A DNA stretch of 64,000 bases, taken from NCBI RefSeq assembly GCF_055900595.2, contig NZ_CM148325.1. One strand, written 5' to 3'. Position 1 is the first letter of the stretch. Every line of letters begins with the position of its first letter. Made by a program: the position numbers. Below are positions 13,341 to 16,031 of the stretch, in pieces.

Positions 13341-16031
13341 TGAATAATCGAGTCCACCAGGGCCACTTAGCCCGTAAACGCTTCGGGCAAAACTTTCTTA
13401 ACGATCAGTTCGTGATCGACAGCATTGTTTCTGCCATTAACCCGCAGAAGGGCCAGGCGATGGTCGAAATCGGCCCCGGTCTGGCGGCATTGACCGAACC
13501 GGTCGGCGAACGCCTGGACCAGCTGACGGTCATCGAACTTGACCGCGATCTGGCGGCACGTCTGCAAACGCATCCATTCTTAGGCCCGAAACTGACTATT
13601 TATCAGCAGGATGCGATGACCTTTAACTTTGGCGAACTGGCTACGAAAATGGGCCAGCCGCTGCGTGTTTTCGGCAACCTGCCTTATAACATCTCCACGC
13701 CGTTGATGTTCCATCTGTTTAGCTATACTGATGCCATTGCCGACATGCACTTTATGTTGCAAAAAGAGGTGGTGAATCGTCTGGTTGCAGGACCGAACAG
13801 CAAGGCGTATGGTCGATTAAGCGTCATGGCGCAATACTATTGCAACGTGATCCCGGTGCTGGAAGTTCCGCCGTCAGCCTTTACACCACCACCCAAAGTG
13901 GATTCCGCCGTCGTGCGCCTGGTTCCTCATGCAACGATGCCTCACCCGGTCAAAGATGTTCGCGTGTTGAGCCGCATCACCACCGAAGCCTTTAACCAGC
14001 GTCGTAAAACCATTCGTAACAGCCTCGGCAACCTGTTTAGCGTCGAGGTGTTAACGGGAATGGGGATCGACCCGGCGATGCGAGCGGAAAATATCTCTGT
14101 CGCGCAATATTGCCAGATGGCGAACTATCTGGCGGAGAACGCGCCTTTGCAGGAGAGTTAACGATGATCAATTCGCCCCGAGTGTGTATTCAGGTTCAAA
14201 GCGTCTACATTGAGGCACAATCTTCACCTGATAATGAACGTTACGTTTTTGCTTATACCGTAACCATACGCAATCTGGGGCGAGCGCCAGTGCAGTTGTT
14301 GGGGCGTTACTGGCTGATCACCAATGGCAATGGCCGTGAAACCGAAGTCCAGGGCGAAGGAGTGGTTGGCGTTCAGCCACTTATCGCGCCTGGCGAAGAG
14401 TACCAGTACACCAGCGGTGCAATCATTGAAACCCCGCTGGGCACCATGCAGGGTCACTACGAAATGATCGATGAAAATGGCGTCCCCTTCAGCATCGACA
14501 TTCCCGTATTCCGACTCGCCGTTCCCACACTCATTCATTAAAAGAATATGGCGACATACCTTATTGGCGACGTTCATGGTTGTTACGATGAACTGATCGC
14601 ATTGCTGCATAAAGTAGAATTTACCCCTGGGAAAGATACCCTCTGGCTGACAGGCGATCTGGTTGCGCGCGGACCGGGTTCGCTGGATGTTCTGCGCTAT
14701 GTGAAATCCTTAGGCGACAGCGTACGTCTGGTGCTGGGCAATCACGATCTGCATCTGCTGGCGGTATTCGCCGGGATCAGCCGCAATAAACCGAAAGATC
14801 GCCTGACACCGCTGCTGGAAGCGCCGGATGCCGACGAGCTGCTTAACTGGCTGCGTCGCCAGCCTTTGCTGCAAATCGACGAAGAGAAAAAGCTGGTAAT
14901 GGCCCACGCAGGGATCACGCCGCAGTGGGATCTGCAGACCGCCAAAGAGTGCGCACGCGATGTAGAAGCGGTGCTGTCGAGTGACTCCTATCCCTTCTTT
15001 CTCGACGCTATGTACGGCGATATGCCAAATAACTGGTCACCGGAATTGCGGGGGTTGGGAAGACTGCGTTTTATCACCAACGCCTTTACCCGTATGCGTT
15101 TTTGCTTCCCGAACGGTCAACTGGATATGTACAGCAAAGAATCGCCGGAAGAAGCCCCTGCCCCACTGAAACCGTGGTTTGCGATTCCTGGCCCTGTCGC
15201 TGAAGAGTACAGCATCGCCTTTGGTCACTGGGCATCGCTGGAGGGCAAAGGTACGCCGGAAGGTATTTACGCGCTGGATACTGGCTGCTGTTGGGGCGGG
15301 ACATTAACCTGCCTGCGCTGGGAAGATAAACAGTATTTTGTCCAGCCGTCGAACCGGCATAAGGATTTGGGTGAGGGAGAGGCGGTCGCGTCTTAAATCC
15401 CGTCGAGCATAAAATCTAATGCTCCTTTAATCAAAGTTCGGTGCGCGCTGGCATCGCAAAATTTCGTTCCCAGCGTGTTAACTGGAACAGTTGCAGTCTC
15501 ATGCGTCATGAGCACATATTCTTTGCCGTCTACCAGTAAAAGGATTGGGTTAAGCCGTTCTGGTGGGCGAATATGGCTAAATCGTTCAATAGGTGTTAAT
15601 GGATTAACGATACGGCGATTAATCTCACCAATAATGTCGCTGGTAACATCGATAACAAAGGGCAACGCGGCGTTCCTGCCGCGACTGCGGTATACCGTAA
15701 ATTGCATCGCTAGAAGTTCCGGTACTCATCAGAGAAACATCCGGTTTCATCAGCCAATTGATTTAACGCAGCGATAGCTTCTGCATTCTCTTCACGCCAA
15801 CGTGTTGCTGCATGTTTTTTAAGTTCAGCATTGAGCGCAACCGTAAGGGTGGCGCTCATATTTAAGCCTGCATCACGAGCGCGATTGACTAACTCACGGT
15901 CGACGGTGACGGTCACACTTTGTGTGGTACGTTTTGCAGTCATGATATCGTGCTCCTGTACAATTTATACGTCTTGTATACACGGATATCTGCACGTATC
16001 AGTGATGCCGGAATTCTGATATACAAACTTA

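Follow-up and report, generated by a model that had tools for sequence, protein, structure and literature searches.

A ccdO157-type toxin–antitoxin islet between folA and apaH carrying a rare substitution in the core of the CcdB toxin

The two small genes located between folA and apaH in the 64,000-nt stretch of contig NZ_CM148325.1 analysed here (the window; positions count from its first nucleotide) are almost certainly the known chromosomal ccdO157-type type II toxin–antitoxin islet. We hold with high confidence that the locus as a whole is best explained as an islet of this type, in which a functional antitoxin is probably combined with a structurally weakened toxin. ccdO157 is the chromosomal ccdAB of Escherichia coli O157:H7, reportedly the subject of Wilbaux et al. 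2007 and Mine et al. 2009. Publications of 2007–2009 already covered the system, where it lies and how it has decayed in evolution, and the locus is of little discovery value, being ordinary apart from a rare core mutation in the toxin.

The analysis establishes what the two genes of the ccd pair are, how they are arranged, where they lie and how they are distributed in the population. Both genes reside on the minus strand and together occupy positions 15393–15943 exactly in the ORF list, in keeping with the original prediction of two co-oriented small ORFs with the size and order of CcdA and CcdB. The antitoxin gene comes first: ccdA (15943..15710) encodes 77 amino acids followed by a TAG stop codon, and ccdB (15707..15393) encodes 104 amino acids followed by TAA in an intact reading frame. 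Two nucleotides (TAG-CG-ATG), and not 3 bp as initially claimed, separate the ccdA stop from the start of ccdB. The flanking core gene folA (16508..16029, minus strand) lies upstream on the same strand as ccdA, from which it is separated by an 85-nt spacer (15944..16028, minus strand) that presumably harbours the promoter/operator and ribosome-binding region. On the other side, the flanking core gene apaH (14548..15396, plus strand) and ccdB converge, as was foreseen; the stops of apaH (15394–15396) and ccdB (15393–15395) interlock and the two genes therefore overlap by 4 nt. The apaH product comprises 282 amino acids in the window versus 280 in K-12, and the final ~25 nt of the gene differ. 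When the window, O157:H7 and K-12 are aligned together, the islet extends approximately over 15397..16018 relative to K-12. The K-12 junction contains a 77-bp REP-including spacer and, according to both annotation and alignment, lacks the ccd pair, which agrees with the original prediction.

Both products are readily assigned to their families. CcdB matches Pfam PF01845 over its full length (residues 2–103, 7.3e-30) and CcdA matches PF07362 over residues 8–77 (1.2e-26), and the anticipated alignment to the F-plasmid Ccd proteins and their chromosomal homologues likewise revealed significant similarity. Amongst solved chains CcdB aligns to the CcdB proteins of Vibrio fischeri (3e-15) and the F plasmid (4e-9), and CcdA to the F-plasmid CcdA structure 2ADL (7.6e-6). 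The AlphaFold model of CcdB (pLDDT 83.8) was matched by Foldseek to CcdB:GyrA14 complexes with a TM score of 0.77, the matched entries being 4ELZ, 1X75 and 2VUB. The scores against the F-plasmid CcdA/CcdB equivalogs NCBIfam NF010262 and NF010264 (56.1 bits versus a cut-off of 147, and 40.3 bits versus 100) fall short, and by these sequence criteria we classify the pair as members of the CcdA and CcdB families, yet not as the F-plasmid orthologue. Small ORF size is the one feature that could speak for chance frames, or for plasmid DNA misplaced during assembly; this reading deserves next to no credence and is refuted by the full-length Pfam matches with their very low E-values together with the recurrence of the arrangement, which is seen in 2021 complete chromosomes and never on a plasmid.

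In CcdA an N-terminal ribbon–helix–helix part of DNA-binding type is followed by a CcdB-binding tail whose C-terminal residues are GCFSDEYRNF, and RefSeq genomes annotate the gene as a CcdA-family antitoxin. CcdB displays the predicted CcdB-like termini, beginning with MQFxVY and ending in GI. Five of the 11 structure-defined GyrA contacts of F-CcdB are identical in the window protein (I24, I25, K91, G100 and I101) and the remaining six are changed (D26, E87, N88, N92, N95 and W99). Of the GyrA-contacting C-terminal residues, the Gly-Ile pair is conserved, and Trp99 of F-CcdB is replaced by an aspartate that is the norm in the clade. Trp occupies the F-W99 position in just 2 of the 133 CcdB family representatives, and Asp98, Asp102, Gly103 and Ile104 of the window protein all correspond to the clade norm and are near the family consensus. 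Residues Q2, F3, Y6 and S22, assigned to the active site by mutational data on F-CcdB (PMC5062330), are kept. At every GyrA-contact and dimer-interface position the window protein has the residue found in the functional alleles of O157 and CFT073, and its gyrase-contact residues are the same as those of the experimentally toxic O157 protein.

From this homology and from the literature on the F-plasmid and O157:H7 systems we infer the biochemical activities of the two proteins. A CcdB dimer would bind to the dimerisation domain of GyrA and trap DNA gyrase in a cleavage complex, and the disordered C-terminal tail of CcdA would bind CcdB and thereby neutralise the toxin. The ribbon–helix–helix N-terminus of CcdA is predicted to bind short palindromes upstream of ccdA, where the CcdA–CcdB complex would repress the operon, and degradation by Lon would render the antitoxin unstable. 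The published O157 system does target gyrase and its antitoxin is Lon-labile (PMC5543033; see also PMC7354431 and PMC2654758 for its published properties). In its likeliest state, the window allele would pair an intact functional antitoxin with a structurally weakened toxin.

The spacer between folA and ccdA contains a candidate site for such autoregulation. About 75 nt of it (~15944–16018) are specific to the islet, with homology to K-12 resuming at ~16019 in the alignment, and a Shine–Dalgarno sequence (GGAG) is located upstream of ccdA at 15953–15956. A perfect GTATAC palindrome at 15976..15981, 38 nt upstream of the ccdA ATG and a candidate CcdA site, is accompanied by the near-copy GTATAA 11 bp downstream and by GTATAT 43 bp upstream. 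Three GTATAC-like sites with at most one mismatch were found in the spacer versus 0.27 expected, and only 0.3% of the 85-nt segments within the 64 kb contain three or more. In the ccd operator of the F plasmid, GTATAC palindromes ~12 bp apart make up the core (PMC5389731), and the GTATAC-type sites of the spacer represent a candidate CcdA operator resembling that of F. The core of the spacer is also partly homologous to the DNA upstream of plasmid ccdA genes: in an alignment with five plasmid upstream regions a common core beginning TATCCGTGTA and an imperfect inverted repeat are apparent. The aligned upstream regions share no conserved −35/−10 pair, and for this reason we have not placed the promoter. 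A scan of the whole region including the spacer detected no consensus sigma-70 promoter; candidates picked by hand are weak and comprise TATAAA (15969–15964) with CAGATA and TATACA (15980–15975) with CTGATA. As the promoter could not be located, the assertion that it must overlap the 3' end of folA is unsupported; the spacer there offers 85 nt of largely islet-specific DNA. Transcription of ccdA by read-through from folA is possible; a terminator scan that included the folA–ccdA interval yielded none, and when the apaH/ccdB junction and the spacer were folded, just a weak hairpin (z = −1.8) without a U-run emerged. An Rfam search of 14000–17500 returned nothing relevant.

The identification of the pair as the O157 type, which the original prediction had ventured, rests on a close correspondence to an O157:H7 genome that extends to the folA–apaH junction itself, the gene order, the gene sizes, the 2-nt spacing, the flanking junctions and the 282-aa apaH allele. 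At this same junction the O157:H7 proteins are 99% (CcdA) and 94% (CcdB) identical to those of the window, and the DNA is 97.7% identical over 901 nt. Six substitutions lead from the window to the O157:H7 CcdB (G10S, L15F, E28V, N35I, H45R and T78A) and one to its CcdA (N76S). The position of ccdO157 between folA and apaH, and the 77-bp spacer in its place in K-12, are documented in the literature (PMC3184786; PMC7232551; PMC7167474). The pair is far from universal at this locus, a finding that favours the original prediction: it is present at folA–apaH in 2021 of 5426 complete E. coli genomes and is chromosomal in every case, the sole 'plasmid' match (at 94%) being an 834-kb record that also bears apaH. 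Further junction types are the REP-type junction of K-12 and a third class, in which DUF4291, a hypothetical gene and a remnant of ccdA are present. The ccdO157-type pair is found at this junction in about one third of E. coli strains. Strain Z0117EC0005 is 100% identical to the window across the ccd region and 98.7–99.6% identical over the whole window, with several indels.

The two genes have fared very differently across the species. In each of the 2021 carrier genomes ccdA shows 99% identity or more, a level that ccdB attains in only 1081 of 2024, and three kinds of null lesion together inactivate ccdB in at least 746 genomes: a 13-nt deletion (at least 215 genomes), G95stop (413) and C84stop (118). 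The published ccdO157 has a 5-fold lower affinity for gyrase (PMC5543033; PMC7354431; PMC2654758) and is considered to be degenerating (PMC2654758); the known pattern of decay is confirmed here at a far larger scale, with an antitoxin gene that is uniform and a toxin gene that is repeatedly inactivated in a survey of 5426 complete genomes. The ratio of non-synonymous to synonymous substitutions relative to O157 is 6:2 for ccdB and 1:2 for ccdA, numbers too small to carry statistical weight, and a pN/pS comparison based on 9–11 sampled alleles is suggestive at best, given how few substitutions it contains.

The disparity between the two genes raises the question of whether the islet is kept mainly for CcdA, as an anti-addiction factor directed at the CcdB toxins of same-clade plasmids, with ccdB dispensable. 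The conservation of ccdA alongside at least 746 ccdB nulls favours this reading, the GCFSDEYRxF tail is invariant in the CcdA proteins of Hafnia, Klebsiella, IncL/M, IncFIC and IncR plasmids, and the partner plasmid CcdBs are 58–72% identical to that of the window; an activity of this kind has been demonstrated for a chromosomal ccd system of Erwinia, as relayed in PMC7354431. However, O157 CcdA does not neutralise the CcdB of the F plasmid (PMC7354431; PMC5543033), plasmids of this kind are seldom found in E. coli within the collection searched, and the conservation of ccdA could simply mean that ccdB was lost recently or that so short a gene shows little diversity. We consider this explanation unlikely; if true, CcdA would counter plasmids of the same clade but not F, and the Asn35 substitution of the window toxin would be a rare instance among the null or destabilising changes that ccdB gathers. 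In a smaller variant of this explanation, Asn35 would yield a toxin that is naturally temperature-sensitive or dependent on CcdA as a chaperone.

The toxin gene of the window has escaped the null lesions and differs in another respect. Relative to the nearest alleles CcdB has two lineage-specific changes, F15L and I35N. Codon 15 (15663..15665, minus strand, TTG) encodes Leu in place of Phe; we considered this change as a damaging one and dropped it, the position being aromatic in the close clade and variable family-wide (Y, V, I, A, F), and by this comparison Leu15 is probably benign. Codon 35 (15603..15605, minus strand, AAT) encodes Asn in place of a buried Ile that corresponds to Ile34 of F-CcdB. 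This position is occupied by I, V, A or L in all 133 family representatives, by Ile in all other E. coli alleles sampled and by I or L in 22 of 24 aligned sequences, the other two being the window allele and its cluster representative. The Asn35 allele occurs in 9 of the 5426 complete genomes. The AlphaFold model places residue 35 within a beta-strand, and in F-CcdB I34 is 0% accessible, belongs to the most mutation-sensitive buried cluster and counts among the five buried residues of highest sensitivity, with Asn ranking near the bottom among substitutions tolerated at buried sites (PMC5062330). I34E and I34R of F-CcdB are prone to aggregation (bioRxiv 10.1101/2024.10.15.618527). Because Asn35 replaces a fully buried and mutation-sensitive aliphatic residue, we lean towards the view that the toxin of the window is attenuated, which fits the species-wide decay of ccdB alongside a conserved ccdA.

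The effect of Asn35 may be partial, lowering activity without abolishing it, since many buried-site mutants of F-CcdB are active again at high expression (tolerance at I34 reaches 79% at the top level; PMC5062330) and destabilised CcdB can be chaperoned by CcdA (bioRxiv 10.1101/2024.10.15.618527). The window allele is a stable lineage allele and no obvious pseudogene, because its reading frame is uninterrupted and 433 public contigs encode precisely this protein. The same observations lend some weight to a fully active module in which Asn35 is tolerated and the working pair aids stress or antibiotic tolerance (persistence), the more so as the window protein shares its GyrA-contact and dimer-interface residues with the functional alleles of O157 and CFT073, F-CcdB with buried-site mutations is often active when expression is higher, and ccdABO157 reportedly contributes to persistence (Gupta et al. 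2017, cited in PMC5543033). This is a serious, though less probable, alternative: it has to accommodate a polar Asn where every family representative has an aliphatic residue and where F-CcdB is highly sensitive, species-wide signs that selection does not maintain ccdB, and a system that has itself been called degenerating. An islet of the ccdO157 type with a functional antitoxin and a structurally weakened toxin accordingly remains our preferred reading. Ile35-to-Asn may offer a natural test case for the predictions of deep mutational scanning on F-plasmid CcdB, and the annotation 'plasmid maintenance protein' should be replaced by chromosomal CcdA/CcdB (ccdO157-type) module.

Compared to other ccd systems, the pair shares with F-plasmid ccdAB both protein families and their folds, the antitoxin-first operon and the upstream GTATAC-type palindromes. 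The CcdB proteins of F and the window have in common the MQFxVY N-terminus, an Ile-Ile pair, a Lys and the C-terminal Gly-Ile, and the CcdA proteins the motifs RW..EN and G.F.DE. In contrast, overall identity amounts to only 36% for CcdB and 28% for CcdA, F Trp99 and Asn95 correspond to Asp102 and Asp98 in the window, and the F system is plasmid-borne whereas the window pair is chromosomal. Unlike F, the published O157 system does not cause post-segregational killing (PMC5543033), and cross-neutralisation works in one direction, with F CcdA neutralising O157 CcdB and O157 CcdA failing to neutralise F CcdB (PMC5543033; PMC7354431). The best solved match is the chromosomal CcdB of V. fischeri (3JSC, 2KMT and 4ELZ), which stands out in sequence (3e-15) and fold (TM 0.77) and, like the window protein, lacks a Trp at the F-W99 position; it differs in its ~34% identity, its genus and its genomic context. 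The likeness is greater still to a set of plasmid pairs that we refer to as the 'LDGI' clade, found on a Hafnia alvei plasmid, a K. aerogenes IncFII plasmid, the E. coli IncL/M plasmid p142_B, an E. tarda IncFIC plasmid and a Morganella IncR plasmid. Their layout is that of the window (77–78 aa and 104 aa with a 2-nt gap), their CcdB proteins are 58–72% identical to that of the window and end in the same ...DFMLDG(I/V), their CcdA proteins are 60–73% identical with the tail GCFSDEYRxF invariant, and the core of their upstream DNA shows partial homology to the window spacer; unlike the window protein, their CcdB keeps Ile at position 35. The location of the LDGI-clade pairs on plasmids suggests a likely source of the chromosomal islet.

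Positions 15393-15943 of the window comprise exactly two ORFs in the ORF listing, both on the minus strand: ccdA (15943..15710), which encodes a 77-aa antitoxin and ends in TAG, and ccdB (15707..15393), which encodes a 104-aa toxin and ends in TAA. The co-oriented pair filling this interval corresponds to the original prediction, although the separation is 2 nt (TAG-CG-ATG) rather than the 3 bp proposed. A GGAG Shine-Dalgarno sequence is located 9 nt 5' of the ccdA ATG, and folA (16508..16029), on the same minus strand, lies 85 nt upstream of ccdA. apaH, on the plus strand (14548..15396), is convergent with ccdB, as had been anticipated, and the stop codons of the two genes interlock so that they overlap by 4 nt. 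The apaH 3' end (15362-15396) specifies a 282-aa product (...LGEGEAVAS) compared to 280 aa in K-12 (...LGEAAAS), the final ~25 nt differing by a 6-nt indel and several substitutions. As the 282-aa form also accompanies a third junction class devoid of ccdB, junction events have reshaped the 3' end of a core gene.

The assignment of both proteins to the CcdA/CcdB families was borne out: in Pfam, the 104-aa protein hits the CcdB family from end to end (7.3e-30) and the 77-aa protein hits CcdA (1.2e-26). Amongst solved structures the toxin matches Vibrio fischeri CcdB (3e-15) and F-plasmid CcdB (~4e-9), and the antitoxin F-plasmid CcdA (7.6e-6). An AlphaFold model of CcdB built from 24 homologues (pLDDT 83.8) can be overlaid on free CcdB as well as on CcdB:GyrA14 complexes at a TM score of ~0.77; the second-best fold matches are MazF-type toxins, as expected for the clan of CcdB. 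Alignment to the F-plasmid system recovers the similarity that had been sought, at 36% identity for CcdB and 28% for CcdA; both proteins score far below the NCBIfam equivalog cut-offs of the F-plasmid proteins and are therefore family members rather than F orthologues. Three further proteins among the database matches (P0165, P0048 and P0055) display odd CcdB-containing architectures, namely a 2608-aa protein with eight CcdB-like stretches, a 119-aa cupin-CcdB fusion and a 103-aa protein with both CcdA and CcdB Pfam domains, and may be gene-calling artefacts.

Conservation of the GyrA-contacting residues is partial. Five of the 11 structure-defined contacts of F-CcdB (I24, I25, K91, G100 and I101) are identical in the window CcdB, whereas the other six (D26, E87, N88, N92, N95 and W99) all differ; Q2, F3, Y6 and S22, active-site residues according to mutational data, are identical. 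The contact pattern is nearer the family consensus than that of F itself: in a set of 133 sequences (132 representatives of 50%-identity clusters plus F) the N95 position is Asp in 127 and the W99 position is Trp in two. Asp98, Asp102, Gly103 and Ile104 of the window CcdB are invariant in its clade, and none of its six differences from the O157 protein falls at these contact positions.

The 85-nt folA-ccdA spacer contains GTATAC once in perfect form (15976-15981) and twice with a single mismatch, a density that only 0.3% of the 85-nt windows in the 64 kb reach, together with further short palindromes at 8-15 bp intervals. The operator core of F ccd consists of GTATAC palindromes ~12 bp apart (PMC5389731). 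The core of the spacer shares homology with the DNA upstream of a Hafnia plasmid ccdA, so the control region probably arrived together with the ccd genes. The proposed obligatory overlap of the promoter with the folA 3' end is unsupported, since a scan detected no consensus sigma-70 promoter in the folA-ccdA interval, nor in the ccdB-apaH interval; scanning and folding likewise revealed no terminator in either interval. The pair may be transcribed from a weak promoter of its own or by read-through from folA, and convergent read-through with apaH may also occur.

The pair is not universal at this locus: it occupies the folA-apaH junction in 2021 of 5426 complete E. coli genomes (37%), in which all junction copies are chromosomal and none is plasmid-borne. 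The other genomes have a K-12-type junction or a third arrangement in the order apaH, DUF4291 gene, hypothetical gene, 45-aa C-terminal ccdA remnant and folA, which matches a junction class reportedly described by Mine et al. In one example, from E. coli Z0117EC0040 (locus L004, 6148-7572), the 45-aa remnant derives from a divergent ccdA and retains only the toxin-binding C-terminal half (...ETGCFSDEYRKF), without a promoter region. Plasmid relatives of identical layout occur in Hafnia, Klebsiella, Edwardsiella, Morganella and on E. coli IncL/M plasmids, their CcdB being 58-72% identical to that of the window, which suggests a plasmid origin of the chromosomal islet.

Two points go beyond the trivial, a rare Asn35 toxin allele and a very uniform ccdA beside a decaying ccdB. 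The window's ccdB has an intact reading frame, and the exact proteins recur in public contigs (CcdB in 433, CcdA in 425). Compared to the nearest other alleles it carries the lineage-specific changes Phe15Leu and Ile35Asn; position 15 is variable family-wide and Leu15 is thus probably harmless. Nine of the 5426 genomes carry the Asn35 allele. Of 24 close homologues, 21 have Ile and one has Leu at position 35, with Asn confined to the window's allele, and amongst the 133 family sequences it is never polar (I 56, V 54, A 20, L 3). The residue resides in a predicted beta-strand of the model, and its counterpart in F-CcdB is Ile34, whose side chain is inaccessible (0%) and which, with V18, V20, I90 and I94, makes up the five buried positions most sensitive to mutation; in saturation mutagenesis Asn ranks near the bottom of the substitutions tolerated at buried sites (PMC5062330). 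The F-CcdB variants I34E and I34R are aggregation-prone (bioRxiv 10.1101/2024.10.15.618527). By analogy, we lean slightly towards a toxin that is destabilised or attenuated, a reading limited by the recovery of activity in many buried-site F-CcdB mutants at higher expression (PMC5062330) and by the ability of CcdA to chaperone such mutants (bioRxiv 10.1101/2024.10.15.618527).

Queried with the CFT073 alleles, ccdA is full length and at least 99% identical in all 2021 carriers; ccdB (n=2024) is at least 99% identical in 1081, 95-99% in 682 and 90-95% in 261. Sampled genomes revealed three ccdB lesions beside an intact ccdA, namely a frameshift caused by a 13-nt deletion and stop codons at Gly95 and Cys84, which allele-specific searches located in at least 215, 413 and 118 genomes, respectively; together they affect at least 746 of 2024 carriers (37%), figures that count genomes and not independent events because the collection is skewed to clinical clones. 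Decay of ccdO157 has been published already and is repeated here at larger scale. The GCFSDEYRxF tail of CcdA is invariant and common to plasmid CcdAs of the same clade, and this, alongside a ccdA that stays uniform while ccdB degenerates, leaves room for a putative anti-addiction role against same-clade plasmids.

Eight complete genomes share the ccd region at 100% identity. Across 9000-24000 the best identity in the complete-genome collection is 99.6% (most E. coli 95-99%), so the lineage is sparsely sampled. Elsewhere in the window, a single-gene islet between rihC (38156-39076) and ispH (40375 onwards) encodes a 402-aa ORF (39096-40304, minus) with a hydrophobic N-terminus; a Pfam search gave no match, and residues 189-277 match the NCBIfam XAC2610-family domain (2.2e-25). 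XAC2610 serves as the immunity protein to a Xanthomonas type IV secretion effector, so the ORF may be an orphan immunity-type gene. This islet is found in only 9 of the 5426 genomes, rihC adjoining ispH elsewhere. A plus-strand fimbrial subunit and usher cluster (48973-53547), unlike the nearest complete genome, is fragmented into numerous short ORFs and has an IS1 transposase gene inserted in it (49817-50320). A minus-strand block (55968-59349) that is missing from, or different in, that genome harbours a sulfatase (57074-58567), a Tsx-like channel protein (58588-59349) and two ~180-aa ORFs without Pfam match.

In O157:H7, ccdO157 is an islet between folA and apaH, K-12 and HS have 77 bp in its place, and the junction is plastic, accommodating REP, ccd or other DNA (PMC3184786; PMC7167474; PMC7232551; PMC2654758). 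The chromosomal toxin targets gyrase, with ~5-fold lower affinity, and Lon degrades the cognate antitoxin; neutralisation works in one direction only, F CcdA inhibiting the chromosomal toxin and chromosomal CcdA failing to inhibit the F toxin, and the chromosomal pair does not stabilise plasmids (PMC5543033; PMC7354431). A role in persistence has also been claimed (PMC5543033; PMC7354431). The K-12 junction indeed lacks the pair and holds only a 77-bp REP-containing spacer, K-12 homology stopping directly after the apaH stop (~15397) and returning ~10 nt downstream of the folA stop (~16019). An O157:H7 genome carries these two genes in the same place and with unchanged spacing, CcdB being 94% and CcdA 99% identical to the window's proteins. 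The observation behind the original prediction is confirmed and its interpretation as an O157-type chromosomal ccd supported: the window pair is the published ccdO157 islet, a system already known.
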